From the IMG/VR virus record IMGVR_UViG_3300035703_000080, positions 3,850 to 67,849 of that record: a DNA stretch of 64,000 nt; one strand, 5' to 3'. Origin of the DNA: a virus. The notes beneath the pieces are model-generated. The model had not been told where the DNA came from and did no database searches. It worked only from the letters and a program-made list of their open reading frames with translations. Both the position numbers and the translations under genes were made by a program. Each line of letters starts with the position of its first letter. Position 1 is the first letter of the stretch. Below, piece by piece: positions 1 to 47,116 of this stretch.

Positions 1-3000
1 GTCGCCGTCGGTGTCGCGGCGGAAGCTCCCACGGAGGTCGTGCAGTCCGTGTTGGAGCGGTGGCAAGCAGGTCTGCCGCTGCTGGACGAGGATGCCCTCA
101 AGGAGTACGGTGAGAGCGCCTATGCCGGTGCGCTGGTGGGCGGACCCGTTGGTGCCGCAGGCCGTGCCTACGGACGCTCGGGCGCCCGGGCCGAGATCCG
201 TGAGCAAGAAGAAGCCGCTGCTGCCGAGCAGCGTCGGGCCGCAGCGCAGGCCGAGCAGGAGCAGCGCGAAGCGCCTGACTACATCCTGACGCTGAACGAC
301 GAGTACCAGAAGCTGCTGGCGCAAGAGAACGCGCTCAAGGCGCAGCGCAAGAAAGAAACCAAAGAAGCGCCGCTGACGCAAGAAGACAAAGACAACAACG
401 AGCTGATCAACCGACAGCTTGCCGAAATTAAGGACCCCCTTGCGCAAGCACGCAAAGCATTCAACGACGCAGGCGGCCCCCCGGCGCTGAAGAAGGTTCA
501 AGATGCACGGCGCACTGCGGCGCTCAGTCCGCAAGAAGCCTTCCTCGAAAGCCTCGGTGTTTCCGCAGCAAAGCCGACGCCTTCGGCAGAAGCAGCAAGC
601 ATAGAGGAAGCAGCGCTTGAGTCTGCGGCGGCGACCGCGCCTTCGGCGCTTCAGCGCTACGCACAAAACCGCATAAGCCTTGCAAACGAGCAGACGTTCG
701 GCACCGCTACTGCCAAAGACTACGTCGACTACCTGCTGGAGCGCCCATCTCTGGCACAAAAACTGGTAGACGAAAACCAACAGCTCCCCGGCATAGACAG
801 CAAAAAGCTGAGCAACAGCGTTTTGTCTGGGTTGCGGCTGGCGCTGGCTGAGCGCAAGAAGCAAGCAGCCAAAGGCAGGCCGCTTGAAGGAACGCCGCTG
901 TCACAGCTTGAAGCTGAAGAAGCTGCTGCACTGGAAGATGTATCCAGAGAAGAAGCTGCGCGTCTTGCAGAGACAGAAGAGCGGCGCAAACTCGGACCGG
1001 AACTGACGGCACTCCAGCGCATGCGTGCGCGGCGTTTGCCCGAGAGCGTGCGCGAAGAACCTTACATCGAGGCTGTTGCGGAGCGCGCCGCGCGTGCTGC
1101 GCCCGCACCGGAACCGCAGCCTTCTGCTGCTGTCGGACAGATGCAGCAGCTCCTCACGGGGCAAGACGTAACGTACACCGCAGAAGAGCCGAAAGCACGG
1201 CAACTGCGGCGTGTGCCGACGGAAGGGCTGACTCTTTTTGGAGAAAGCCAACGCGAGGCTGAAGCCGCCCCTGCCAAGACGCCCGATCCCAAGCAGCTTC
1301 GCGAGCGCATCAATCGTGCGCTGCTGAACCCGAACCTTTCCGACGAGGCTTACGACCTGTTGCGGCGGGCAGAAGACCTCATGCCCGACGTCGAGACGCG
1401 CATCGCTACGCGCAGGGCAACCGCCGAAGGGCGCACCCGGGAAGACGTCGCACAAACGGCGGGGTTGCTGGAGCTGCTGGATCAGCAGCTCACCCGTATT
1501 GAGCGTGGGCAGGAGGGTGTGCCGACAGCGGGACGCACGCTTGTCCAAGATGCGGCGCGCCGACCTGCATTGGGCGCAAGCGTTGTTTCGCCGTCCGAGG
1601 CGACGAAGGATGATATTCGCCTGCGGCGGCAGCAGACGTATGCGGACCTTGTAGCGCAAGGTTTTTCTCCTGGGGCAGCGGCCAAGCGTGCTTTCCAAAT
1701 CGGCAAGCCTACGGCGCAAGCGCAAGAAGGCGCGCTGACGCGCTTCGACGTTCCGCAGCAACCTCAACGCCCCGAAGCGCAGGCCGAAGTCACACGCAAG
1801 GTGCCCGGGCGCATCACACCGATGGAGCCCCGCGCTGCCCGAGAAATGGCTCCGGGACCGGAGGCTGCGCGTCAGCCTGGGCGGCAGTTGGCGCAAGAAC
1901 CGCGTCGAGGCACTATCCGGGGACGCGGCGCGCCGCTGTCACTGGCCGCAGAGATTGAGCCCTTGTTGCAGATGCAGGAGCGTGCGCGGGCCGAAGACGC
2001 GGGGCAGCAGGTGCTGTTTCCTGAGCTGGAGCGCGAGCGCGGCACCATTGCATCTACGCCGGAAGCATTCCGTCGACGGCTCGACCGCTTGAAGGCGGTG
2101 AAGGACGGCTACGCACGAGAACTGTTGCGCAAAGAAGCGGCGGTGCAGCCGCTTGAACAAGAGATCCGAGAACTCGGAGCGACGTTGGACGAGTACCAAC
2201 GACAGCAAAAAGCGTTGCAAGACGCGCAGTTTGTTTTGCGAAATAACGAGGCGCTGCTCAAAGAGCTGCGCGTGACCGGTGCCGGTACTGAAAAACTCAG
2301 CGGCGGTATCGGTGCGCTTACGGTAAGCGAGAACACGTTTCAGCAAGCAGCAGACGCCTTGAACAGACAGCGGGTGTTGCTACTCAACTACGCAGAACAA
2401 CGGCGGCGTGAAAAGGAAGCTGCGCCAAAGCTCAAAACAAAAGACTTTGCAGAAATCAGCAAGTTGCTTGAAGTGCAAGCCAGCGACGACGCGCGGTTGG
2501 CCAATGCACTGGCTTCTATCGAAGCCGAAGTTGAGCGCATAAACGCGTTCGAGAAAGACGTCTACAAGCAGTTTCCGCTAATTGAGCGCGCAAAGGAAGC
2601 CGCGCGGGAGCGCATGCGTGACCTGCACCGCCGCTACGGTACCGCGTCCGAGTTTTTAGACGGTCTCAAAACACTGCGCGGAAAGATTGACCGGCAGTTG
2701 CAGACGGCAAAAGACAGCTATCGCAAAGACCCGTACAACGAAGAACTGCGAGAGCTTGTTTTTGAGCTTTTCCAGCAAACGCGCGAGATCGATTCACGGA
2801 TCGACCGCAACAAAAAGCTGATGAGCAAGATCTCTGCACAGGTAGATGTCGCTGTCGCAGAGGCCAACATCAATCGCCTGAAGGCTGAAGCTCCGGCAGG
2901 TGCGGTAAAAAAGGCGGCAGACGCGCTGGCGGACGCAAAGCGGCGCTTGCAAACGCTGCGCTCCGATCTTGCCAAAGCACAACCGAAACCCGCAGCAACA

Positions 3001-6000
3001 CCTGTCGAAGAAAAGGAAAGGCCTGCGTCTGCGGTTGCGGAAGGGCCGTTGCAAGAAGTCATTTCTTACTCGGCCAATCTGAACAGGCATCAGCGCATGT
3101 TGGAGGCCATGCAGTTGCGTACGAAGACCGGCACTATTGTTCCGGCACTTTCCTACGCGCAACGGCTTGCCCGAGAGTCAGGCGCAGAAGTCAAGTTCTC
3201 TGTAGACGACCTTGCGCTGCTGGACAAAGACCCCAAGCGTGTGCTTAACGGGCTTGTCAGTCGTGCAACGGATCTCGAGAACAAGATCAAAAAAGCGGTG
3301 GCTAACTCGCGCGGGGCGGTGCTGCGCGGCGAAGTAGAACTGATCAACCGTTACAAGCAACTGGTGCAGGACTACGAAAACGCAGAGTCCTCGTTGGAGC
3401 GTTCGCAGATCGAGCCGGAACTGGACCTAGTTGCCAAAGAGTACAGCACCGCGCTCAATGAGTCTTTGGCCAAGCGCGTTGTTTGGAAAGGCCAAAAGCG
3501 AGATACGGCAGAGCTGCTCAATCTCTACCAAAAAATTGCCTATCTCGAAGAGCGGTTCTTCTTGCCGCAGGCGGCGGAAAAACGCACGTACCGCCCCGAG
3601 ACAGAAGCGGAGATCGCGGAGCGCGAGCGCGAAGCTGCGGCCATTTTCGAGTCTCAGCGCGAAGCGCAAGCCGGTGCGGGCACGACTTCTGGCGAAGCCC
3701 TCACGCGTTCGCAAGTTGCAAAGCGCCGCAAAGCGCAAAAAACGCTGTACAGCAGCAAGGGTGTTACGGCCCAAGAAGAGCTGTCCAACGAGGCGCTCAT
3801 CGAAAACGCCAAGGCCTACGCAACGGCGCAGGAAGTTGCGTTGTTGCGCAGCGCGCTTGAAAAACGAGATCGCCTTGAGCCGCTGACGGATCTTGAGCAG
3901 TTTGCGTACAACAGCGCCGTAGAAGCAAACCGCCCCAGCTTTGCGGACTTCGAGCCTCTGGCGGACGTCGTGCAAAAAGAGCGCAAGGGTACGCGCAAGC
4001 GCGGCGCGGCGTTGTCAGAGGAAGGCGCACTTTCTGAAGAAGCGCTGGATGTTATTGCCGAAGGGCGCGACATCGAAGAGGAAGTAAAGGCAGAAGAAGC
4101 CGCAGAGAAAGAATTTGAGCAGCGTGTCATGTACAGCGAGAGCGCTGCTACAGAAGCACCGCCAGAAAAGAAGAGTGTTGGTCGAGGCTTCTCTAAGAAA
4201 GAGATGCAAAAAGCCAACGAAATTTCTAGACTTTTCCGCGAGATCAAAGATGCGGAAGCAGAGTTGCAGGCAGAGGCGCAGAAGAGCCTAGAAAACAAAA
4301 CGCTTCTTGCAGACCGCAAACCCCTGCTGGACCGCCGCAAAAAAGTCGAAGCGTTGCGCAGCGAGCTTCAGCGATTGCTGAAGAAGGAAAAAACGGTTGC
4401 CGACGACGACGAAGGGGGTGTTGAGCTGTCGCGCGGTGCAACCGCCACGCCGTCCACTACCGCCACGGTCCGCGCGGAGTTGGGCAAAATGTTCCCTGAC
4501 CTCGGTCGGGTGCAGATCTACGACTCGGTTGACGCGCTCGTCCAGGCCAACCCGCAGTACAAGGGGCGCATCCCGGCGGATGCGCGGGGCTTCGTGGACT
4601 CGGCAGGCAACAAGGCCTTCCTGATCGCGGAGAACATCGACCAGGGCCGTGCGTTGGGCGTGCTGCTGCACGAGGTTGGTTCGCACATCGGCCTGAAGAA
4701 CACGCTTGGTGAGGCCCAGTACAACGCGTTGGTCAAGGCAGTGCAGACGTGGGCCAAGAAGACCGACGGCAGCACCGAGGCCAAGGTCGCCCAGGCGGCG
4801 CTGGCGCGTGTGGAGGCGGCGCAGACACCGGCCAGCCAGCGGGCAGACGAGACGCTGGCCTACGCCATCGAGGAAGCGGTCAACGCAGGCGTCAAGCCGA
4901 TGGAGACCAAGAGCGTCCTGGGGCAGTGGCTCAGCCGCGTCGCCCAGCTCTTCCGCCGTGCACTGGAGAAGTTCGGCCTGCCGCCCAAGGCGCTCGATGC
5001 GCAAGGGCTCGTGGACATGGCGTTCGGTGCGGCCAAGATGGAGATGCGCGGCATGCGCCCGGAGGGCGCTGTGCCGAAACGCGGCGAGCTGCTTTTCTCC
5101 CGCAAGACCGACTACGCCCCCGGACTCGCCGCCGCAGGCAAAGTCTCGGAGCAGCTTGTCGGAGGCCAACGCTCGTTCGTCGACAAAGTCAAGGCCAACC
5201 TGCTGGGCTTCCGCGCGCAGGTGGTAGACAAGCTCGCGCCGCTGGAGAAGGTCGCCTACGCCAACATGGACGACATGAAGGCGGCGCAGTTGATGTTCTA
5301 CATGCGCATGTACGACCAGCGCAACCACTTCACGTCGGAGTCGCTGGCCACCGGGGTGCCGGAACGCAAGGAGATCGTTCGCGCAGACGGGCGTAAGGAG
5401 TTCGTCATCGAGTCCAAGCCCGGTGCGAACATCAAGCAGATCGTCGACAGGCTGAGCACCAAAGCCGTCGTCAAGGAAGCAGGCAGCGTCGACGCGGCCA
5501 ACAGGCTGTTCACGCTCTACACCGCCGCCAAGCGTGCGGATCGTGTGGGCTACCAGAAGCTCGGGTTTGGCCGCGCCGCCGCCGAGGCAGAGCTGCGCCA
5601 GATCGATGCCGATCTGCGCTCGCCTACGCTGGACCCCAACGACCGCAAGCGCCTGCTCCAGCGCAAGGACTACTTGGAGAAGAACGCCGCCCAGATGCCG
5701 AGCGAAGCCGACATCCGCGCCGCCGTCAAGGAGATCGAGGCCAACACGACTCTGCGCGATGCGTTCAAGGATGCGCGGGAGATGTACAACGAATACAACC
5801 GCAACCTGCTCAACTTCGCCGTGCAGGCGGGCACTATCTCTGACGCCGAGGCCAAGCGCCTGCTTGCGGCCAAGGACTACGTCCCGTACTACCGTGTGCG
5901 CGGCGGCAACGCCGAGCTGGTGATCGGCGGCGAGAACCCCATCCGCATCGGCAACCTGAAGGACAACCCGCAGCTCGAAGAGCTGGTCGGCGGCGAAGAA

Positions 6001-12837: not shown

Positions 12838-12865
12838 ATTGTACAGGTCACTTCTTGGCCGTCAA
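12838..12865 (-). promoter_or_regulatory. Sigma70-like promoter overlapping a 16-bp operator-like site
   Basis: Minus strand TTGACG-N16-TACAAT; overlaps TGTCTAACATTGTACA (12830-12845). Confidence 0.55.
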
Positions 12866-15292
12866 CCCCCTTTCCGCGATCTCAGACTTGAACAGATCGA
12901 CCAGCAGCCGGTTGTCGTCAACCTTGCCCGCCAGGGCGGCGAACATCTTCTTCTCGACGGGCGAGCCTTGGATGTGGACGACGGTGACCTTGTCGCTGGT
13001 CTGCCCCTTGCGGTCGGCCCGGGCGCAGGCCTGGACGTACTGCTCGACGCTCATCAGCGGGCCGAAGAACACGACGGTGTCCGCCGCAGTCAGCGTGATC
13101 CCGTGCGCAGCCGCCTGGGGCTGCATGACCAGCACGCGCGGATCGGGCAGGGTCTGGAAGCGCTTGATGATGTCGCCTCGCTTGGTGGCCGTCACCCCGC
13201 CGTGGATCTCCTCGCACGCCACCCCGCGCTTGTTGAGGAACACCGAGATCGTCTCGATGGCCGCGCGGAACAGCGCGAACACGATGACCTTGCGGTCGGT
13301 CTCCTCCAGCACCTCCAGCAGCACGTTGAGCCGAGGCGTGGCGTCGAACTCCACCGTCTCCCCGTTGTCCGAGTAAGCCACGCCGCAACTGATCTGGAGC
13401 AGCTTGTTGAGCGCTGCCGCTGCGTTCACTGCCGTGATCGTCTCGCCTGCCGCCTGCGCCACCATCGCCGTCTTCAGCGCGTTGTAGTACTTGGCCTGCT
13501 GCGGGGTCAGCGGCACCTCTCGCGTCATCGTCACGACGGGCGGTAGGTCCAGGCACTGCTCCTTGGTGTAGCGGATGGCAGGCTGCAACGCCCGGTGCAC
13601 GCGGTCGGCGGCGTCGGCCTTGGGCGCCCACTTGAACATGGTGACCTTGTTCATCACCGTGTCGCGCCACGCGGTCTGGAAGGCGGGCACGCCCTTGGGG
13701 TTGACGAGCTTGGCCAGCCCGTAGGCGTCCACGGGCGACTGCGCCGCAGGCGTGCCGGTCATCATCCAGAGATAGGTGTTGGATGTCAGCAGCGAGTTGA
13801 GCACCTTCCACCGCTTGGTCTGCGGGTTCTTGTAGGCGTTGCAGTTGTGTACTACCCAGTGATCCCCAACAAGGTAGTTAGGTGCTCCTTCAACTTCGAG
13901 GTTGAAGACATCGACACCGCTTGGACATTCGATATACGAAACACTTTCCACCCAAGCGTCGCCAGTTTCTCTTCCTTCTTGCGATCCTGCTCTTGCCGTA
14001 TTTTCGCCGTATGGCTGTTGCCGTCCACTTCCAACCCCACCATCTGGTCGGGCCACGCGAAGTCGAGCTTGTAGTTCGTAGGAAAGCCGGGTTGCCTCCC
14101 ACCCAACGCTATTGGGTAGTTCCATACCCACCCCGCAGGCAAGACCTCGGAAATCAGTTGTTCGGCAGGCGTCATGCCCCTGCCGTTGCCGCCCTGTACT
14201 TTCGGTTTGTGCCATCGCGCCTTCAGTGCCGCCGACAGTTTCGCCCGATGCTCCGCTGTTTTCGGGCCTGTAGACTTGCCCCGTTGCTCTGGCGGCATTT
14301 TGTTGAAGTAGCTGGCCCCCGGATTCCGAGAGTGATACCTCTTCCGCGCGCAGGATTTCGAGCAGGTCAGGCCAAGCGGGTGGTTCTTTGCCATACCCCA
14401 AAGTACCCGGTGCCGCATATGGCGGAATTCCTGCCCGCAGGTATGACAGCTCAACACCAGATATGAGCCTTCTTCCCGTAAGATTTTTGGCGCACACCCA
14501 TCCGGCGTCTGTGAAGAAGGGGTGCTCGGGGGTGCATCGCAGTGTTTTTTCGTTTCCAAGACGGACCTCGACAAGTCGCGTAGCGGTATTGCGTACAAGA
14601 CGTTTTATACGTGCTACGCCGTTAGAAGTCAAGACCTTGTCCCCGGGCTGAAGCTGCTCGATTGAGTGTCGCCCCAGCGGCGTGCCCACGAGCGTGCCTG
14701 CCACAAAGCACTCATCGACGATCACGAGGTCGAAGCGCCCGTCGTTCTTCACCTCGGTCGAGATCAGGTCGAGCCCCTCGTAGTTGGTGATGACGATGTC
14801 ATGCCCTTCCTGCACGGCCTCTATGCGGCGCGATGCTTGCGCATGGTGGGCCACGATGGCGCTGCGGTGAATGACGGAGTTGCCGATGTCTTGCATCCAC
14901 GCGCTGTGCATGATCGACATGGGGCACAGGATGAGCACGCGCCGCACATCCCCGCGCGTCATCAGGTAGTCCGCCGCCCACAGCGCCGACAGCGTTTTGC
15001 CCGTCCCCGGCTCCGACAGCACGAACGCCCGCCGGTTGAGCGTGAGGAAGCTCGCTGTCTCCTGCTGGTGCGCCATCGGCTTGAAGCGCCCGGGCCAGTC
15101 GTAGCGCCCGTAGATGGGAGAGGGGACGTTGCGCACGCCCAGGTTGCGCAGGACCCGCGCTTCGTCCAAGCCCCAGTAGACCGCGATCTCGTAGCCCCCC
15201 GGGATCGGGAAGGCCTTGTGCTTGGGGATGATGCTGTACCGTTGCGGGTGCTGTGTCCTGAACAACAGGATCTTGTTTTCTACGATTTGCAC
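12848..15292 (-). CDS. SNF2/SF2 DNA helicase containing an intein
   Basis: Walker A EPGTGKT; Walker B VIVDE interrupted by an intein; MTGTP, HGITLT and QACARADRKGQ motifs. Confidence 0.9.
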   Translation of the reverse strand: MQIVENKILLFRTQHPQRYSIIPKHKAFPIPGGYEIAVYWGLDEARVLRNLGVRNVPSPIYGRYDWPGRFKPMAHQQETASFLTLNRRAFVLSEPGTGKTLSALWAADYLMTRGDVRRVLILCPMSIMHSAWMQDIGNSVIHRSAIVAHHAQASRRIEAVQEGHDIVITNYEGLDLISTEVKNDGRFDLVIVDECFVAGTLVGTPLGRHSIEQLQPGDKVLTSNGVARIKRLVRNTATRLVEVRLGNEKTLRCTPEHPFFTDAGWVCAKNLTGRRLISGVELSYLRAGIPPYAAPGTLGYGKEPPAWPDLLEILRAEEVSLSESGGQLLQQNAARATGQVYRPENSGASGETVGGTEGAMAQTESTGRQRQGHDACRTTDFRGLACGVGMELPNSVGWEATRLSYELQARLRVARPDGGVGSGRQQPYGENTARAGSQEGRETGDAWVESVSYIECPSGVDVFNLEVEGAPNYLVGDHWVVHNCNAYKNPQTKRWKVLNSLLTSNTYLWMMTGTPAAQSPVDAYGLAKLVNPKGVPAFQTAWRDTVMNKVTMFKWAPKADAADRVHRALQPAIRYTKEQCLDLPPVVTMTREVPLTPQQAKYYNALKTAMVAQAAGETITAVNAAAALNKLLQISCGVAYSDNGETVEFDATPRLNVLLEVLEETDRKVIVFALFRAAIETISVFLNKRGVACEEIHGGVTATKRGDIIKRFQTLPDPRVLVMQPQAAAHGITLTAADTVVFFGPLMSVEQYVQACARADRKGQTSDKVTVVHIQGSPVEKKMFAALAGKVDDNRLLVDLFKSEIAERGLTAKK
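13844..14710 (-). mobile_element. Intein (289 aa) in the helicase Walker B motif
   Basis: N-terminus CFVAGTLVGTPLG, block B CTPEHPFFT, block F/G VFNLEVEGAPNYLVGDHWVVHN, Cys +1. Removing it restores VDECNAYKN. Confidence 0.95.
13852..14598 (-). CDS. Vsr/DUF559-like PD-(D/E)xK endonuclease nested in the +1 frame of the helicase intein (start uncertain)
   Basis: CHTCGQEF...TCSKSC zinc finger, KTAEHRAKLS NUMOD3-like motif, YKLDFAWPDQMVGLEVDGNSH...DRKKEEKLATLGWKVFRISN nuclease core. Confidence 0.85.
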   Translation of the reverse strand: MYAIPLRDLSRSVLETKKHCDAPPSTPSSQTPDGCAPKILREEGSYLVLSCHTCGQEFRHMRHRVLWGMAKNHPLGLTCSKSCARKRYHSRNPGASYFNKMPPEQRGKSTGPKTAEHRAKLSAALKARWHKPKVQGGNGRGMTPAEQLISEVLPAGWVWNYPIALGGRQPGFPTNYKLDFAWPDQMVGLEVDGNSHTAKIRQEQDRKKEEKLATLGWKVFRISNVQAVSMSSTSKLKEHLTTLLGITG

Positions 15293-16542: not shown

Positions 16543-16738
16543 ACAGTGCTTTCTCCTTTTCGTCCATCAACTTGAGCACATGCTGAAGCATGCGCGCTTC
16601 TGCCCCGAGTTCAATCGCCGCGTCTCGGGCTTCTGAGTACCTGTGCTCTAGGCACAGGTCGTGTGTGCGCTTGAGCATCTGCTCCATGCGAATCATGGGC
16701 GCGGCGTAATCAACGATGTCAGTCTTTTGCAAGTCCAT
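16454..16738 (-). CDS. Hypothetical protein (MDLQKTDIVDYA...)
   Basis: Overlaps the polymerase stop; its C-terminal part overlaps the next gene and may be a spurious extension. Confidence 0.55.
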   Translation of the reverse strand: MDLQKTDIVDYAAPMIRMEQMLKRTHDLCLEHRYSEARDAAIELGAEARMLQHVLKLMDEKEKALYADTKANQGRQEAVHHQPARQAEEAIHGW

Positions 16739-19598
16739 AGCGTTTGTGCACGCCCCCGCTTGCCGATAGCGGAATCCCCGGCAAGTATGGAGGCTCAATA
16801 GTCATCTGCGCCAAGACCCATGTCTTGGCGTCATCCGCTTCGCTCTCCGGCGCGACTGCGATGGCCTCGTCATGCACCGTGCCCGCCACAGGGTAGCGTT
16901 TGTCGATGCGTAGCATGCCGTCGGTCATCACGATCCGTGCGGTGCCTTGGACACAGTTGTGTACTATGAAAGGGCCTGTGGCTCCTTTGACAACGAATCT
17001 GTTTCTCGGGCCACAGTTGACAATATCGTACACCTGTTGCTGAACGAGGGCGGCAGCGTCAGCAGTTCCACGGGCCAGCCCGATTTGAGTCGGTTGTACA
17101 ACGTAGTTCTCCCTATGCCCGTAGCCGCGCTTAGCGCAGGTACGTCTACCGCCCGAACTGTTGTGCGTTTGTTCATAGAATTCGTCTGCCGAGACACCCA
17201 CCGACAGTTCTCCGGCGAGTACGGGCCGTTGTTGTCCATACGATCCAAGTCCAAGCCTCGCGCATACGTAGCGCCCATGTCTTCCCAAAAAGCCGCGAAG
17301 CTGTTGCGCCATCTCTCGCAAACGTACACCCCCCTTGCGCCATAGTTTTTGTACGCTGCTTCCGCCTTGCTGTAACACCGCGCATGCATGTTGCGCCAAA
17401 CGATATAGGCGGGGTGCCGGCTCATACCGTGCGTGGTGTTCTTCTCCCCTATCAGCCGCCGCGTCATACAACCGCAGTTCGGAATCCCCCCGCGTTTGGT
17501 TTCTTTCGTTACGTCTGCGCCGAGCTTCACTGTCTGCGCACCGCATTCGCAGCGGAAGCGCCATTTCCACGACTTCCCGGTGGACGCCTCCGGGTGCAAC
17601 GCCGTCAACATGCCGAAGGTCTGGCCGGAAAGGTTCTTGAACTTGTGATGCGGCTTCCCATCCATGATCTGTGAGAACGAGGTGTTCCGGGGTAATGAGG
17701 ACGCCGTCCACGGTAACACAACCCTGAACTCCGGTCAAGATCTTCCCCGCATGCCGCACGAACTCCACCCCGTCGTGCACCAAGTCTTGCGGTTCGACGC
17801 TCTCTATGGGCACCCAGCCTCGCGCAGTAAGCACGGGCGTTCCTGCGGCCAAGCAGTTGTTGGTGATCTTCCCGGCGTACAGCTTCGACCGCTTCTTGCC
17901 GTCTGCGTACGTCCACTGGATGCGCCGCCCGTCGCCTTCGGGCTTGAGGTCAGGATACCGCAAGCTCATGCCGTTTGGCAAGACGATCTCCTCCTTGCGG
18001 AAGGTCAGGCACTTGTGGCGGTACTCGTTGCCCTTGAACAGGCTGTGGGTGATGAGGTTCTGGAAGAGTTCCCACAGACGCACGACGGGCTGCGCCGTGG
18101 CGCGGTACCGGGTGATGATGGCCTGAGCGGCGAGGCAGTGGATGAGCAGCTCCTGCGCCGTGCAGGAGTGCGGGATGGCCTCCATCGCCTTGACGAGATG
18201 CTCGGAGCCGATGAAGACGTCGACGTCGCGTGACGTCACGCCGAGCTGCCGCGCTTCTGCTTTTGTGTACCTTTTAGGTGGTGCACCGAGGAAACCCGTC
18301 AATAATTGTGCCGCGAAACTTGCCCACCCCAATTGGTACCCGCACCCAAGCAAAGCAGACTTTGCACTTTGTCTCTCCACCGGATGAGAGTCTTTAGTCA
18401 TACCGGGTATATTGAACATGCCCGCGCCGAATGTGGCGTAGGGGTCGCCGCCACCCTTGAAGATGTCGAGCAGCGTGCCGTAGTCGGCCAGCCACGCCAG
18501 CACGCGCGGCTCGATCTGGGACAGGTCTCCCACCACCAGCACGTGGCCCTCGGGGGCGGTGATGGCCTTGCGCAGGAAGCTCCCGCGCTTGAGGTTCTGG
18601 AGGTTGATCTGACTGCCCTTGCTGGCCGTGTACCGGCCCGTGGCGGCGCCGTAGTAGTTGACCGGGAAGGGCAGCGGCCCGCGCCGCGAGATGTCGAGGA
18701 ACCGTTGCGCACGGGTGCGCTGGAGCGTGGACTTGACCATCAGCCGCGCCTCGCACAGCAGGGCGACGGCCTCGTTGTCGGAGTTCATCATCGCCTGGAA
18801 CAGCGCGTCGTTCTTGGCGAACGCGAACGTCTTCTCCCCGGTGGTCTTGCTGACCTTCGTCGGCGGCTCGACGCCCATGCCCTCCAGCACGGCGGCGAAC
18901 TTGTCGTTGGACGCCAGCGCCGCCTCCTCCACGCCCAGGCGTGTGAGCAGCTCCTCCCGTGCTTGGCGCTCTTCCTCGATGGCGGGCTCCAGCATCGCCC
19001 CGTCCAGCACCAGCAGCGGGCGCGTGTACATGCGCAGGGTCAGGTCGATCAGGCGCAGCTCCTTGGACGGGTACCCGGGCAGCATGCGTAGGAAGATCTG
19101 CTCGCACAGCCACGTGTCGTGCTTGCAGTAGTCGGCCAGCGTCTGCTCGACGTCGAAGGGCAGCTCGTCGAGGATGTTCTCGGACGGGCTGAGCCCGTCT
19201 CCCTTGGGCGGCAGACCGTAGCGCTCGGCCAGCACCTTCAGGCTGTTGCCCACCTCGACGCCGTGCAGGGCGCGGCCCATGCTGAGCGTGTCGAACATGA
19301 AGCACGGCTGCACGCCGTAGTGCCACGACAGGATGCTGCCGTCGAACTGGGTGTTCTGGCAGACGAGCGCGGTACGCGTCCAGTCGATGCTGTCCGCCCA
19401 GTCTTGGATGCCGTTGCGGCGGACCCAGACGGCCTTGTTGTCCGTCCCGACCTCCTTCCACGACAGGCCCCACGCCTTGAAGCGCGGGTCGCGCAGGTAC
19501 TCCTCGTTGGTCTGGCACGAGAACCCGAGCTTGACCTCGCGCCCCCAGGACGTCTCGAAGTCCACCGCCAGTATGCGGTCGAATGGCGGCTTGCTCAA
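16719..19598 (-). CDS. polA: Family A DNA polymerase with 3'-5' exonuclease, containing an intein
   Basis: Exonuclease motifs DFET, NTQFD, YCKHD; motif A DLSQIEPR, motif B RQSAKSALLGCGY, motif C TVHDEA. Confidence 0.95.
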   Translation of the reverse strand: MSKPPFDRILAVDFETSWGREVKLGFSCQTNEEYLRDPRFKAWGLSWKEVGTDNKAVWVRRNGIQDWADSIDWTRTALVCQNTQFDGSILSWHYGVQPCFMFDTLSMGRALHGVEVGNSLKVLAERYGLPPKGDGLSPSENILDELPFDVEQTLADYCKHDTWLCEQIFLRMLPGYPSKELRLIDLTLRMYTRPLLVLDGAMLEPAIEEERQAREELLTRLGVEEAALASNDKFAAVLEGMGVEPPTKVSKTTGEKTFAFAKNDALFQAMMNSDNEAVALLCEARLMVKSTLQRTRAQRFLDISRRGPLPFPVNYYGAATGRYTASKGSQINLQNLKRGSFLRKAITAPEGHVLVVGDLSQIEPRVLAWLADYGTLLDIFKGGGDPYATFGAGMFNIPGMTKDSHPVERQSAKSALLGCGYQLGWASFAAQLLTGFLGAPPKRYTKAEARQLGVTSRDVDVFIGSEHLVKAMEAIPHSCTAQELLIHCLAAQAIITRYRATAQPVVRLWELFQNLITHSLFKGNEYRHKCLTFRKEEIVLPNGMSLRYPDLKPEGDGRRIQWTYADGKKRSKLYAGKITNNCLAAGTPVLTARGWVPIESVEPQDLVHDGVEFVRHAGKILTGVQGCVTVDGVLITPEHLVLTDHGWEAASQVQEPFRPDLRHVDGVAPGGVHREVVEMALPLRMRCADSEARRRRNERNQTRGDSELRLYDAAADRGEEHHARYEPAPRLYRLAQHACAVLQQGGSSVQKLWRKGGVRLREMAQQLRGFLGRHGRYVCARLGLGSYGQQRPVLAGELSVGVSADEFYEQTHNSSGGRRTCAKRGYGHRENYVVQPTQIGLARGTADAAALVQQQVYDIVNCGPRNRFVVKGATGPFIVHNCVQGTARIVMTDGMLRIDKRYPVAGTVHDEAIAVAPESEADDAKTWVLAQMTIEPPYLPGIPLSASGGVHKRYGLAKD
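16956..17855 (-). mobile_element. Intein (300 aa) in DNA polymerase
   Basis: CLAAGTPVLTARGWVPIE, block B ITPEHLVLTDHGW, VYDIVNCGPRNRFVV...FIVHN, Cys +1. Removing it restores KITNNCVQGTAR. Confidence 0.95.
16964..17665 (-). CDS. HNH homing endonuclease nested in the +1 frame of the polymerase intein
   Basis: NLSGQTFGMLT, WRFRCECG, NCGC, THGMS, WRNMHARC, YGARGVYVCERW, LDRMDNNGPYSPENCRW and a C-terminal HTH (GIGRTTLYNRLKSGW). Collinear with the free-standing HNH at 46517-47116. Confidence 0.9.
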   Translation of the reverse strand: MDGKPHHKFKNLSGQTFGMLTALHPEASTGKSWKWRFRCECGAQTVKLGADVTKETKRGGIPNCGCMTRRLIGEKNTTHGMSRHPAYIVWRNMHARCYSKAEAAYKNYGARGVYVCERWRNSFAAFWEDMGATYARGLDLDRMDNNGPYSPENCRWVSRQTNSMNKRTTVRAVDVPALSAATGIGRTTLYNRLKSGWPVELLTLPPSFSNRCTILSTVARETDSLSKEPQALS

Positions 19599-20545: not shown

Positions 20546-20742
20546 GAGTAGCTTGATTGTATCTGTTTACCACCGCGCTGCTTCGCTGTTGATCAGTTCT
20601 ATTTTGGCCTGCTTGGCGAACCACCGTGCGACCAGTACGCGCTCCGCGTCGGTCTTGAAGGGCCACGCCCAGCGGGCGAGCGTCAGTCCTGATGGGTGCA
20701 TCATTCACACCACAACAAGAGGACCAATGTACCAACGATGTT

Positions 20743-20778
20743 GGCGATGGCGATGGCGATGGCGATGGCGATGGCGAT
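20743..20778. repeat. (GGCGAT)6 tandem repeat
   Basis: Six perfect hexamers; on the minus strand they encode (IA)6 in a short hydrophobic ORF starting at 20790. Confidence 0.9.
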
Positions 20779-20786
20779 GAGTTCGA

Positions 20787-45299: not shown

Positions 45300-46514
45300 A
45301 TGCCCCTCGTCAGCAAAACCTTCTCGCAGATCATCACCTTCACCCGCGCAAGCACGGCGACGTACTTCGACGCCACGGGTACGCTCCAGAGCGCAGCGAT
45401 TGATGTGCCACGCTTCGACTACAACCCCGCCACGCTGGCTGCGCAGGGGTTTTTGATTGAGGAGTCGAGGACGAATAGCATCCGCAACAACACGATGCAA
45501 GGTGCGGTGGCGGGTACGCCGGGGACTGCGCCGACGAATTGGCAAGCTACAGTTTCTTTAAACGGAATTACACGCGAGATAATTGGTGTTGGAACGGAAA
45601 GCGGCATCACATATATAGATGTCAAATATAGCGGCACGCCAACTGCAAATACTACTTTTCAAATAATTTTTGAAGCAAACAATCAAATTGCAGCGACATC
45701 TGGGCAAACATGGACGCAATCTCAGTTTATGCGTCTTGCCGCTGGCGCGTTGACAAACGTAACTTCATTTTTGATGGTTTTAAGTGGGCGCGACAGTGGC
45801 GGTGCGAGTACAGGCGAACAATTTTCCGACACGATTACCCCAACATCAGCCGGCTTAAGCTCTCAAAGAGAAACCTTAACGGGAACTTTTTTTAACGCTG
45901 CAACTGCGTTTGTGCGGCCAAGTTTGCAATTCAACGTCACCAACGGCGCAGCCATTGACATCACCCTCCGCATCGGCCTTCCCCAGCTAGAGCAAGGCGC
46001 ATTCGCCACCTCCGTCATCCCCACCACCACCACAGCCCTGACCCGTGCGGCAGATGTGGCGAGTGTGAATACGCTGAGTCCTTGGTATAACGCGAGTGCT
46101 GGAACTTTGTATGCGGAATACAGCCGTTTAGCAAACGTATCTGGGCGTATCGTCACTTTCCATGACACTACATCCGGAGAGCAGATTCGAATTAACGGAA
46201 GCGTCAGCGTAAACATTCGGCCTGATTGGCAAATTATTGATGGCGGAGTTACTCAAGCAAACGTGATCGGTACTGTTGAAATTGCGCCTAATGCTATCGG
46301 AAAAACGGCAGGTGCCTACTCAGTAAACGATTTTCAGCAAGCTACAAACACAAGCCTTGGTGTTGCGGATACTAGCGGTACGGTACCAACAGTGTCAAAA
46401 GTAAATTTAGGCACTAATGAAGTAGGCGCTTCAAATATAAACGGCTACCTCCGCCGTATAGTATACTATCCTCGTAGGCTCTCGGACGCAGAGCTTCAAA
46501 GCATAACGAGCTAG
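45300..46514 (+). CDS. Head spike/fibre protein
   Basis: ITFTRASTATYFD...PRFDY...GFLIEESRTN...QLEQGAFATSVIPT...TRAAD and a LamG-like C-terminus; SD GAGGAG. Confidence 0.75.
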   Translation: MPLVSKTFSQIITFTRASTATYFDATGTLQSAAIDVPRFDYNPATLAAQGFLIEESRTNSIRNNTMQGAVAGTPGTAPTNWQATVSLNGITREIIGVGTESGITYIDVKYSGTPTANTTFQIIFEANNQIAATSGQTWTQSQFMRLAAGALTNVTSFLMVLSGRDSGGASTGEQFSDTITPTSAGLSSQRETLTGTFFNAATAFVRPSLQFNVTNGAAIDITLRIGLPQLEQGAFATSVIPTTTTALTRAADVASVNTLSPWYNASAGTLYAEYSRLANVSGRIVTFHDTTSGEQIRINGSVSVNIRPDWQIIDGGVTQANVIGTVEIAPNAIGKTAGAYSVNDFQQATNTSLGVADTSGTVPTVSKVNLGTNEVGASNINGYLRRIVYYPRRLSDAELQSITS

Positions 46515-46516
46515 TA

Positions 46517-47116
46517 ATGGGAAAACCTCTAATCGACCTTACGGGCCAGCGTTTTGGCAGGCTTACCGTGGTGGAGCGTGCAGGCTTCAACGGTAAGACG
46601 CTGTGGCGCTGCGCATGTGACTGCGGCAAAGAAATAACTGCGCTCAGTCCAAACCTGCGTAAGGGTGTGACCCGTTCGTGTGGCTGTCTGAAAACTGACT
46701 TGCAGCGCCAGCGCATGACCAAGCACGGCAGCGGCGTTAAAGGCGCGGAAACTCTGCTGTACCGCATTTGGAAAAACATGCGTCAGCGTTGCTTGAACGA
46801 CAAGCATCCTCGCTATGCGGACTACGGAGGCAGAGGCATCGCTATCTGTGACCGTTGGAATGACTTTGCTGCGTTTGCTCAAGATATGGGCGAAGCACAG
46901 GAAGGTTTGACGCTTGATCGCATTGACGTCAACGGCCCTTACGCCCCCGAAAACTGCCGGTGGGTGGACTACAAAGCGCAGATGCGAAACAAGCGCAACA
47001 ACGTCTGGGTTGATGTGCAAGGCCAGCGCATGGTGCGTGAAGACGCTCGGAAAATGCTTGGCATCAACAACAAACGCATGAATCAGATTGTTGCGGCTCA
47101 GGCCATCACAGCATGA
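46517..47116 (+). CDS. Free-standing HNH homing endonuclease
   Basis: DLTGQRFGRLTV, WRCACDCG, SCGC, YGGRGIAICDRW, TLDRIDVNGPYAPENCRW. Confidence 0.9.
   Translation: MGKPLIDLTGQRFGRLTVVERAGFNGKTLWRCACDCGKEITALSPNLRKGVTRSCGCLKTDLQRQRMTKHGSGVKGAETLLYRIWKNMRQRCLNDKHPRYADYGGRGIAICDRWNDFAAFAQDMGEAQEGLTLDRIDVNGPYAPENCRWVDYKAQMRNKRNNVWVDVQGQRMVREDARKMLGINNKRMNQIVAAQAITA

Follow-up and report, generated by a model that had tools for sequence, protein, structure and literature searches.

Inteins whose endonuclease is encoded outside the intein's own reading frame are already in print, in Gorbalenya 1998 (as cited by later authors) and in papers of the Gogarten laboratory from 2025-2026, and the caution on novelty that a sequence-only reading had attached to the present locus was well placed. 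The available text of Gosselin, Arsenault and Gogarten (bioRxiv 10.1101/2025.01.02.630785) describes actinophage inteins whose nucleases lie out of frame or antisense, lists in-frame HNH, antisense LAGLIDADG, antisense VSR-like and, in 'frame 3', endonuclease VII-like types, and proposes that they arose when a free-standing endonuclease gene invaded an intein. Phillips, DeSimone and Gogarten (bioRxiv 10.64898/2026.09.14.751524), who cite Gorbalenya 1998, report a LAGLIDADG endonuclease encoded out of frame in a dnaX intein of cyanobacteria. ShiLan, an insertion element in mycobacteriophage methylases (Arsenault, Gosselin and Gogarten 2025, PMC11855218), is the phage insertion element with out-of-frame HNHs which the sequence-only reading had mentioned.

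The window, which is the whole stretch of 64,000 nucleotides of viral DNA analysed, carries a family-A DNA polymerase gene (16719-19598, minus strand) that reads, intein included, as a single open frame of 959 aa (Pfam DNA_pol_A, E 8.5e-21) and has relatives in viral contigs at 64-100% identity. All polymerase, intein and overlapping nuclease ORF features lie on the minus strand; no strand had been given before. The gene is composed of an N-extein of 581 aa ending in ...KITNN (17856-19598), a class-1 intein of 300 aa (16956-17855, polymerase residues 582-881) and a C-extein of 78 aa plus stop (16719-16955). The intein is an in-frame insertion of 900 nt at the conserved site ...NN/V/VQGTAR. It had been called at this very position from the letters alone, and this is borne out by the splicing residues Cys1, T55-x-x-H58 and His299-Asn300, followed by the +1 Cys of the C-extein, whose TGT codon (16953-16955) is GTC (Val) in intein-less alleles. 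C1, T55, H58, W66, H299 and N300 are invariant in 17 aligned intein sequences.

The N-terminal splicing domain (intein residues 1-68, 17652-17855) has block mean pLDDT values of 91-96, and the C-terminal splicing domain with blocks F and G (residues 271-300, 16956-17045) shows conserved columns and pLDDT of 94-95. In the AlphaFold model of the whole polymerase-frame intein the block means are 91-96 for residues 1-80 and 271-300, and pLDDT is below 50 for residues 84-178 and 187-266, in agreement with the centre previously described as featureless in this frame. Every PDB match that Foldseek lists for this model is an intein or an intein-like Hint domain, among them gp41-1, Msm DnaB and Mtu RecA; the best has an E of 1.7e-3 (prob 1.00). 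The Pfam intein and Hint models do not match this polymerase at E<=0.01, whereas the Pfam intein models do match the helicase intein of the window and the first inteins of the related loci L074 and L086. A split intein or fractured gene was rejected, the host gene being one 959-aa frame and not two ORFs; single host frames of 544-1117 aa are present in the 15 related loci listed with a complete intein.

Within the same DNA, an ORF for a 233 aa HNH-type (His-Me finger-like) putative homing endonuclease (16964-17665, minus strand) begins 190 nt into the intein, which places it in the +1 frame. Its ATG (17663-17665) straddles the codons for His and Gly in the D-H-G-W of the intein, and the 25 nt upstream contain no GGAG, GAGG or AGGA, just as had been read; the TAG stop is at 16964-16966. 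A Shine-Dalgarno motif before the ATG is likewise absent in the related locus L071. In 16/17 embedded copies the start codon lies 27-35 codons before a W..CxC anchor, several having a GGAG/GAGG-like motif upstream, and in several loci a stop closes the nuclease frame only 1-6 codons upstream of this conserved-distance start. Searched against PHROG, the protein matches phrog_374 'HNH endonuclease' (E 4.1e-55), the HNH-annotated families ranging from 4.1e-55 to 6.9e-26; there is no nuclease family match in Pfam (E<=0.01) or NCBIfam (E<=1). It has 401 homologs, and some sources label homologs 'DNA-binding transcriptional regulator AlpA'. The likeness to a free-standing HNH of the same genome also holds: the 199 aa paralog (46517-47116, plus strand) is 41% identical (71/172, E 9e-42) and has 11 stops in the frame which is open in the intein copy.

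The predicted fold of the +1-frame protein has a mean pLDDT of 86.9. Its nuclease core (ORF residues 79-167, 17165-17431) contains a predicted beta-beta-alpha unit, with strands 139-142 and 154-157 and helix 159-164, and harbours R142, Y149, N153 and N165. It is followed by a helix-turn-helix-like putative DNA-binding module (residues 172-205, 17051-17152) with predicted helices 175-182 and 186-194 and weak matches to MerR/TnrA-type regulators, Ner and TorI. The top VIA-align match of the model is PacI (3m7k_A; rmsd 2.7, 75 residues) at a Z of 6.2, where values below 8 may reflect a common arrangement, and Foldseek gave no match in the PDB at E<=0.001. The family profile reaches I-HmuI (1u3e) at a marginal E of 0.059, the DRxDN...N...N block of the family lying opposite the DH...N...N block of I-HmuI. 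In this alignment Arg142, invariant in 32 aligned members, takes the place of the canonical first HNH His, and N153 and N165, also invariant, lie opposite Asn residues of I-HmuI. In this respect the earlier description as a 'complete HNH' was an overstatement.

Y149, in the loop between the two predicted strands, is invariant as well. The His-Me finger survey PMC5714182, in its available text, describes PacI as lacking the catalytic His and using a loop Tyr instead; by analogy Y149 could stand in for the missing His, a residue correspondence inferred from that survey. The same source counts three superfamily groups without His, two of which have no equivalent Tyr either and have presumably lost activity. 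With the His changed to Arg throughout the aligned family, nuclease activity is not assured, and the family raises the biochemical question of whether Tyr is used as in PacI.

The open polymerase frame across the nuclease ORF is not what its codons would give by chance. Across the observed ORF the polymerase frame contains no stop and the third frame 12, and in 20,000 synonymous recodings a mean of 7.96 polymerase-frame stops was obtained (P of 0 stops 0.0003). T-ending codons before risky contexts number 0/870 in the 17 embedded copies as compared to 557/2760 in other contexts (Fisher 1.5e-73), and to 988/3547 in the risky contexts of 63 free-standing relatives, where the corresponding frame has 15 stops at the median and is never stop-free. 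Selection against polymerase-frame stops thus holds the host frame open. Since such stops need T-ending nuclease codons, and NNT to NNC is always synonymous, the +1 layout is cheap to maintain.

Substitutions show the other side of the overprinting. Between the window and L071, the differences at intein codon positions 1/2/3 number 2/4/14 in the N-terminal nt 1-190 of the intein and 61/18/22 in the overlap, shifting from position 3 to position 1 exactly across the overlap, where the amino acid identity is 196/230 for the nuclease frame and 162/229 for that of the intein. An independent pair of helicase inteins (L084 and L086) behaves in the same way, with 7/6/32 differences outside and 61/18/13 inside the overlap, and with identities of 184/206 in the nuclease frame and 140/206 in the intein frame. 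At the protein level the nuclease frame is therefore under purifying selection in the centre, and the intein frame at both ends. The nuclease ORF is complete in 17/17 embedded copies examined.

Alleles with and without the intein co-exist. The intein is missing from 18 of the 20 polymerase loci at 64-100% identity, while one carries it and one ends before the site; phages whose polymerases are 94-99% identical are among those without it. All ten empty alleles shown (10/10) have Val in place of the +1 Cys of the intein allele. Run X1 is one subsurface metagenome in which the two alleles are at about equal depth: an intein-spanning contig at 276.8 and a contig skipping 903 nt (16953-17855) at 286.4, although X1 may be the source sample of the window and is then not independent proof of the junctions. 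In intein-less contigs GAC (plus strand) replaces the skipped 16953-17855, and the skipped form is present in run X4 too. Co-existence alone does not reveal the direction of transfer.

Among 86 loci fetched with the nuclease (L071-L156), the same +1 layout is found in 18 inspected loci, a count that leaves out L091, whose figures equal those of L090. Their host genes are the polymerase, the SNF2 helicase and one other gene. The overlapping frame is +1 in every embedded copy, and in a quick tree 17/18 embedded nucleases fall into one group subdivided by host gene; common descent is expected to give such a uniform frame. Free-standing copies of the family occur in many phages. The window itself holds a second case, also foreseen by the sequence-only reading, with an unrelated nuclease in the same architecture: the intein of an SNF2 helicase (13844-14710) carries a DUF559/Vsr-like ORF, again in +1, across which the host frame has 0 stops. 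The 18 loci, the avoidance of host-frame stops (0/870) and this helicase intein bear out the general class that had been proposed, as opposed to an accident. A wider generalisation, which we hold tentatively and with slightly more doubt than confidence, is that the +1-frame inteins seen here form a large class-1 lineage in uncultured phages, probably of single origin, hosted by family-A polymerases, two SNF2 helicase sites and at least one other gene. Its nuclease would be His-less and PacI/I-HmuI-like, and always in +1 as the sole frame where synonymous NNT to NNC changes clear every host-frame stop; the element would be homing now, and one phage could carry two with unrelated nucleases.

For the polymerase locus itself, the probable explanation is a composite selfish element in an essential gene, in which a contiguous class-1 intein encloses a separate nuclease gene. 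The intein would consist of two splicing half-domains joined by a linker of about 190 meaningless residues, kept only free of stops. Read in +1, the linker DNA would encode a DNA-binding nuclease built of three modules: a zinc/beta-barrel unit at the N-terminus, a His-Me finger core resembling I-HmuI and PacI, and a helix-turn-helix at the C-terminus. We infer that the precursor is translated straight through and that the intein splices out to restore the polymerase, while the nuclease, whose own ATG at 17665 lacks a Shine-Dalgarno signal, would be produced in small amounts by initiation there. In a co-infection the nuclease may nick or cut the empty allele near ...AACAAC/GTCGTC..., and recombinational repair would then copy the intein into it, along with the nuclease gene and the neighbouring Cys codon.

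It is rather unlikely that the +1-frame protein is functional without being a nuclease, for instance a sequence-specific DNA-binder acting as a regulator or recombination helper, with the intein spread by another enzyme such as the free-standing paralog. The Arg for the first HNH His in 32/32 aligned members, the AlpA naming of some homologs, the helix-turn-helix-like C-terminal part and the supposed inactivity of two of the three His-less groups (PMC5714182) would fit such a role; they are countered by PacI, itself His-less with a loop Tyr (PMC5714182), being the top structural match, by the invariance of Y149, N153 and N165, and by the homing-gene-like behaviour of the family, which has free-standing copies, target-gene clades and presence/absence polymorphism. 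The nuclease gene might also be a decaying passenger in a mini-intein with a long junk linker, inherited vertically or lost now that homing is over. A published model does predict decay after homing stops (10.1101/2025.01.02.630785, available text), and a ribosome-binding site is absent in this phage, but decay is made improbable by the ORF being complete in 17/17 copies, by two independent pairs in which the nuclease frame is under purifying selection, by intein-less phages with polymerases 94-99% identical, and by the similar depth of the two alleles in one run.

Programmed +1 ribosomal frameshifting, giving an N-extein/N-intein/nuclease fusion with no internal initiation, would account for the +1 relation in every embedded copy and for the missing Shine-Dalgarno motif in this phage. 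Common descent would give the uniform frame as well, the conserved start distance with motifs in several copies and the upstream stops of several loci speak against it, and no known slippery motif was seen on reading the sequence by eye, so that frameshifting is very improbable. An assembly artefact, against which the sequence-only reading had itself warned, is excluded by contigs of other records and by Logan contigs: the layout recurs in contigs of many other metagenome records, Logan contigs from runs of three studies cover the intein, and a contig of X5 crosses a junction with 26 differences in 1030 nt. Local GC is about 59% and long chance ORFs are frequent in the window, yet a chance open frame in GC-rich DNA is hardly compatible with an HMM E-value of 4.1e-55, and artefact and chance are together counted as refuted.

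The composite element in the polymerase gene, with its complete out-of-frame nuclease ORF, intact splicing domains, frame-dependent selection and empty alleles, belongs to a class already described, the inteins with overprinted endonucleases. Since annotation pipelines expect a single frame in any stretch, the nuclease is missed or is called at the cost of the polymerase, and such inteins end up misfiled as decaying or as mini-inteins. The family supports the view of intein evolution in which splicing came first and the nuclease was captured later. A linker that only has to stay open allows a captured free-standing nuclease to persist here as a separate gene in the intein loop.

As to the nuclease, the beta-beta-alpha metal-finger core of I-HmuI, the HNH homing endonuclease of phage SPO1 (1u3e), and of the restriction enzyme PacI (3m7k/3ldy) is predicted here also, at marginal similarity (E 0.059 and Z 6.2, respectively), and PacI shares with this family the lack of a catalytic His (PMC5714182). 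As to architecture, the fractured genes of Dassa et al. 2009 (PMC2677866), in the available description, have split inteins whose halves flank a free-standing endonuclease gene, the end of which overlaps the downstream intein part; there the host gene is in two ORFs and splicing is in trans, whereas here a continuous host frame is under selection. ShiLan (PMC11855218), as far as its available text goes, resembles our locus in the hidden out-of-frame HNH gene within an open host frame, in the nuclease stop at the very end of the insertion and in having no detectable ribosome-binding site; it lacks splicing domains and is presumed to remain in the protein, in contrast to the bona fide intein found here. 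The dnaX intein (10.64898/2026.09.14.751524), again from the available text, likewise has a same-strand overlapping ORF between splicing domains and frame-dependent selection, omega being low for the nuclease frame and high for that of the intein, but its nuclease is a LAGLIDADG on a bacterial chromosome with a reported Shine-Dalgarno, and ours is HNH-type, in a phage and without such a motif. With the non-canonical inteins of actinophages (10.1101/2025.01.02.630785), on the text available, are shared the contiguous intein with intact splicing blocks, the unstructured centre, the complete overlapping nuclease ORF, the related free-standing phage nucleases and a disjunct distribution with intein-free close relatives. 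The present case extends the class with a same-strand HNH-type nuclease, a same-strand Vsr-like one in a second gene of the genome and hosts far removed from actinophages, combinations which the available text of the 2025-2026 papers does not list. In comparison to the actinophage inteins, the nuclease here is I-HmuI/PacI-like, on the same strand and in +1, as is the Vsr-like one of the helicase, the hosts are uncultured environmental phages, and the extein is a family-A polymerase in place of the DNA polymerase III alpha named in that text.

The window, which makes up the larger share of a complete 67.8-kb record of an uncultured virus, carries a family-A polymerase gene as a single open frame of 959 aa (16719-19598, minus strand), identified from the ORF list and its Pfam domain. 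Among cultured phages the blastn search with this gene returned only four Rhizobium phage records, at 72.6% identity over 106 nt, so there is no close cultured relative. Polymerase residues 582-881 form an intein of 300 aa (16956-17855, minus strand), which starts with Cys, contains a T-x-x-H block B and ends in His-Asn followed by Cys; aligning 17 related inteins showed no variation at these splicing residues. None of the Pfam intein models reached E 0.01 with the polymerase protein, and the Foldseek matches listed for the intein model are inteins or intein-like Hint domains (best E 1.7e-3, probability 1.00). When the intein is read in the polymerase frame, AlphaFold models residues 1-80 and 271-300 with confidence (block mean pLDDT 91-96), and residues 84-178 and 187-266 stay below a pLDDT of 50, confirming the sequence-only reading that the centre of the intein is featureless in this frame.

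The +1 frame of the intein contains, 190 nt from its beginning, an ORF of 233 codons for a putative nuclease (ATG at 17665 to TAG at 16964-16966, minus strand). The ATG spans the His and Gly codons of the D-H-G-W of the intein, in agreement with the sequence-only reading, and the TAG is made from Ile-Val codons of block G, three codons 5' of the splice junction (window 16954-16966, minus strand). The final 27 or so codons of the nuclease are the out-of-frame reading of blocks F and G, and are weakly conserved and of low model confidence.

Several comparisons address whether such an arrangement could be due to chance or to an artefact. Across the nuclease ORF the polymerase frame is free of stops and the third frame has 12. 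In 20,000 trials that redrew the nuclease codons synonymously under the codon usage of the window, a mean of 7.96 polymerase-frame stops appeared and the frame was open in 0.03% of trials; the free-standing paralog at 46517-47116 has 11 stops in the corresponding frame. A polymerase-frame stop requires a T-ending nuclease codon followed by a codon starting with AA, AG or GA (a risky context). In the window ORF a T-ending codon precedes none of 55 risky contexts, compared to 32 of 177 other contexts. The intein of L071, one of the fetched viral loci, aligns with that of the window without gaps over 900 nt, in polymerases which are 70% identical. Counted by intein codon position (1/2/3), the two differ at 2/4/14 sites over the first 190 nt and at 61/18/22 within the overlap, and over the last 60 nt the differences shift back to position 3. 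Within the overlap 196/230 amino acids are identical when the nuclease frame is translated, compared to 162/229 for the intein frame and 154/229 for the third. The same is seen in a second, independent pair, the helicase inteins of L084 and L086, with 7/6/32 differences across the splicing domains compared to 61/18/13 for the core, and identities of 184/206 in the nuclease frame and 140/206 in the intein frame. Judged by these sequence comparisons, the overprinted layout is neither chance nor artefact. Protein-level constraint in the centre of the intein acts on the nuclease frame only, the polymerase frame needing only to avoid stops, and the overprinting is therefore one-sided.

The ORF product matches PHROG families labelled HNH endonuclease (phrog_374, E 4.1e-55) and is 41% identical to the free-standing paralog. 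In the protein collection it has 401 homologs of similar length, most of them unnamed and a few called AlpA-like regulators. Searches of Pfam (E<=0.01) and NCBIfam (E<=1) with both proteins gave no nuclease family, the single-sequence PDB search with the ORF product found only TorI, over 25 residues (E 0.54), and Foldseek of its model against the PDB gave nothing at E<=0.001. The model (mean pLDDT 86.9) shows a beta-barrel with a CxC...CxC cluster, a core made up of a pair of strands plus one helix, and a tail of helix-turn-helix form. In VIA-align it matches PacI, an HNH restriction enzyme, better than any other structure (rmsd 2.7 A over 75 residues), although the Z of 6.2 falls under 8, where the tool advises caution. 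In the family profile a D-R-x-D-N...N...N block aligns to the D-H...N...N block of I-HmuI at a marginal E of 0.059, and all 32 aligned members have Arg where the catalytic His would stand. The protein thus fits the HNH pattern only in part, and its earlier description as a complete HNH protein goes too far. PacI, according to an excerpt of a His-Me finger survey (PMC5714182), likewise has no catalytic His and uses a loop Tyr instead. Y149, invariant in the family, sits in the loop corresponding to the Tyr-bearing loop of PacI, and we infer that it may play the role of that Tyr in the putative nuclease. The free-standing paralog starts 2 nt past the stop of an upstream 404-aa ORF (45300-46514) and has no Shine-Dalgarno-like motif (46512-46519), which suggests its translational coupling to that ORF.

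As to how the embedded nuclease could be translated, the start codon lies 27-35 codons 5' of a conserved W..CxC anchor in 16 of 17 copies and 40 codons in the remaining one (L080). Six loci (L074, L081, L082, L083, L084 and L086) have a GGAG/GAGG-like motif 5' of the start, and these motifs are often formed by the Glu/Lys-Gly-Trp codons which close the N-terminal splicing domain. No such motif was found 5' of the start in the window or in L071, and the 25 nt 5' of the window ATG have no Shine-Dalgarno-like motif, in accordance with the sequence-only reading. At several loci the nuclease frame is cut off by a stop 1-6 codons before the start, which favours internal initiation over frameshifting for the predicted nuclease; around the window ATG, reading by eye showed no known slippery motif. 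A scan of 16700-18300 found no terminator and, against 0.3 expected, a single promoter-like site on the minus strand (17981-17952), which lies some 290 nt 5' of the ATG and to which no weight was given. The sequencing run X14 is labelled RNA-Seq and was rated as probably DNA; parts of the intein are covered by contigs of this run, whose loose ends read like an empty site.

The intein is polymorphic in its host gene. Out of twenty polymerase loci at 64-100% identity (L003-L022), one (L003, 99% identical) carries the intein, eighteen have the C-extein directly after the N-extein and one ends before the site; four of the empty alleles sit in polymerases 94-99% identical to that of the window. All ten empty alleles displayed read ...NN-V-VQGTAR, and the intein alleles have Cys for that Val (GTC to TGT), so that the mobile unit carries its own +1 nucleophile, as would be expected from co-conversion during repair. 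Logan contigs of public sequencing runs show both forms. In X1, possibly the run from which the window itself was assembled, a contig at depth 276.8 is identical to the window over 16881-17934, and a second one, at depth 286.4, lacks 16953-17855 and has GAC in its place; contig depths are rough. The skipped form is present on two contigs of run X4, with only 22 letters on the shorter side, and in run X5, from a separate study, a contig that spans the C-terminal junction differs from the window at 26 of 1030 nt. The most likely scheme for the polymerase intein combines splicing, an internal start and homing. The polymerase precursor would be translated through the open linker, and the two splicing halves, to judge by their conserved residues and fold, would fold together and excise the intein. 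The nuclease would be produced separately at a low level from the internal ATG, recognise the empty site in the polymerase gene of a co-infecting phage, and nick or cut there. Repair off the intein-bearing allele would then copy all 900 nt and the Cys codon, as the polymorphism suggests.

The arrangement is not confined to this gene. Eighty-six viral-contig loci (L071-L156) carry the nuclease or an alignment of its homologs; of at least 588 matches in the alignment search, the 80 best were used. In 22 of the 86 loci the frame lying one base upstream of that of the nuclease is open over the whole match, and the other shifted frame is open in none; since the nuclease frame does not exceed 358 aa at any of them, no in-frame version was seen. 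On inspection 18 of the 22 open-frame loci show intein blocks, including L073 and, only partly and at a contig end, L103; the count leaves out L091, whose figures equal those of L090. L108, L111 and L129 have short open frames in which no intein blocks are seen. At 13 of the 18 loci the host gene is a family-A polymerase with the same insertion site; the others are SNF2 helicases, with a ...LLQIS|C... site in L082, L084 and L086 and a different site in L074, and one other protein in L104. Among 17 embedded copies a T-ending codon precedes none of 870 risky contexts versus 557 of 2760 others (Fisher 1.5e-73). Among 63 relatives that stand free, a T-ending codon precedes 988 of 3547 risky contexts and 2480 of 8182 others, with a median of 15 stops in the host-equivalent frame and none of the relatives free of stops. 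The observation made from the sequence alone is therefore confirmed, and its interpretation as a general class of inteins rather than an accident is supported by the same +1 layout at 18 inspected loci in several host genes.

The uniform +1 frame could be thought to follow from coding constraint alone. This explanation was rejected, since the +2 frame forbids nothing but Met before an A-starting codon and leaves nearly as much freedom. NNT and NNC codons are always synonymous, so avoiding polymerase-frame stops in the +1 layout costs the nuclease nothing; this property of the genetic code explains only the low cost of keeping the layout. In a quick IQ-TREE maximum likelihood tree of 85 nucleases (SH-aLRT support only), 17 of the 18 embedded copies fall in one group (SH-aLRT 91), which splits into helicase and polymerase branches; that of L104 lies outside, in a region without resolution. 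With +2 nearly as free and the embedded copies grouped, common descent is the simpler reason for the uniform frame, and a single nuclease capture followed by spread to new sites may account for it.

A further intein of 289 aa (13844-14710, minus strand) follows D-E of motif II in the SNF2 helicase gene at 12848-15292. Its +1 frame holds an ORF of 248 codons (13852-14598, minus strand), the C-terminus of which is DUF559/Vsr-like (Pfam DUF559 scores 27.8 bits against a cut-off of 20.6). This ORF has no stop in the helicase frame and eight in the third, and a T-ending codon before 0/57 risky contexts versus 32/190 others. Relatives of this ORF are found, again in the +1 frame, in the first helicase inteins of L086 (56% identity) and L074 (34%). 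The SNF2 genes of these loci (L074:999-4262 and L086:252-3602) have two inteins each, with a +1-frame Vsr-like ORF in the first and a +1-frame HNH-type ORF in the second. The ...LLQIS|C... site is present and empty in the window helicase (...NKLLQIS-CGVAYSD..., minus strand) and could be a target for the HNH-bearing intein lineage of L082, L084 and L086. At L067:2086-4670 a distant polymerase relative is interrupted, with its N-part (2086-3120) and later part (3765-4439) in different frames; the stretch separating these parts holds, in the remaining frame, a 30%-identical nuclease relative (3371-3793). A split gene or a nuclease-bearing intron could explain this locus. The segment L071:6364-6624, which lies downstream of the L071 polymerase at a distance of about 2.4 kb, matches the N-terminal splicing domain (48% identity over 87 aa) and probably belongs to another intein of this family, in an adjacent gene. 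At about 20735-20780 of the window a short tandem repeat of period 6 gives GDGDGD, RWRWRW and IAIAIA runs in ORF translations.

Inteins with an out-of-frame nuclease are an already published class. In its accessible text an actinophage preprint (bioRxiv 10.1101/2025.01.02.630785) describes intein nucleases in a separate frame or on the opposite strand, namely an endonuclease VII-like type in 'frame 3', an antisense LAGLIDADG and an antisense VSR-like type, and proposes that free-standing nuclease genes invade inteins. A same-strand out-of-frame HNH-type or Vsr-like nuclease in a bona fide intein is absent from the published descriptions in the portions available, to which the supplementary tables of the actinophage work may add types. 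The dnaX preprint (bioRxiv 10.64898/2026.09.14.751524), in the part accessible, reports an out-of-frame LAGLIDADG, frame-dependent selection and co-existing alleles, and credits the first proposal of an out-of-frame intein nuclease to Gorbalenya 1998. The phage insertion element with an out-of-frame HNH which the sequence-only reading had mentioned is that of ShiLan (PMC11855218); as described in the excerpt available, it conceals an HNH gene and lacks splicing domains, whereas the element of the window is an intein with splicing domains. In the split-intein fractured genes, as outlined in the available portion of PMC2677866, the host gene is broken, while the window polymerase is a single unbroken frame.
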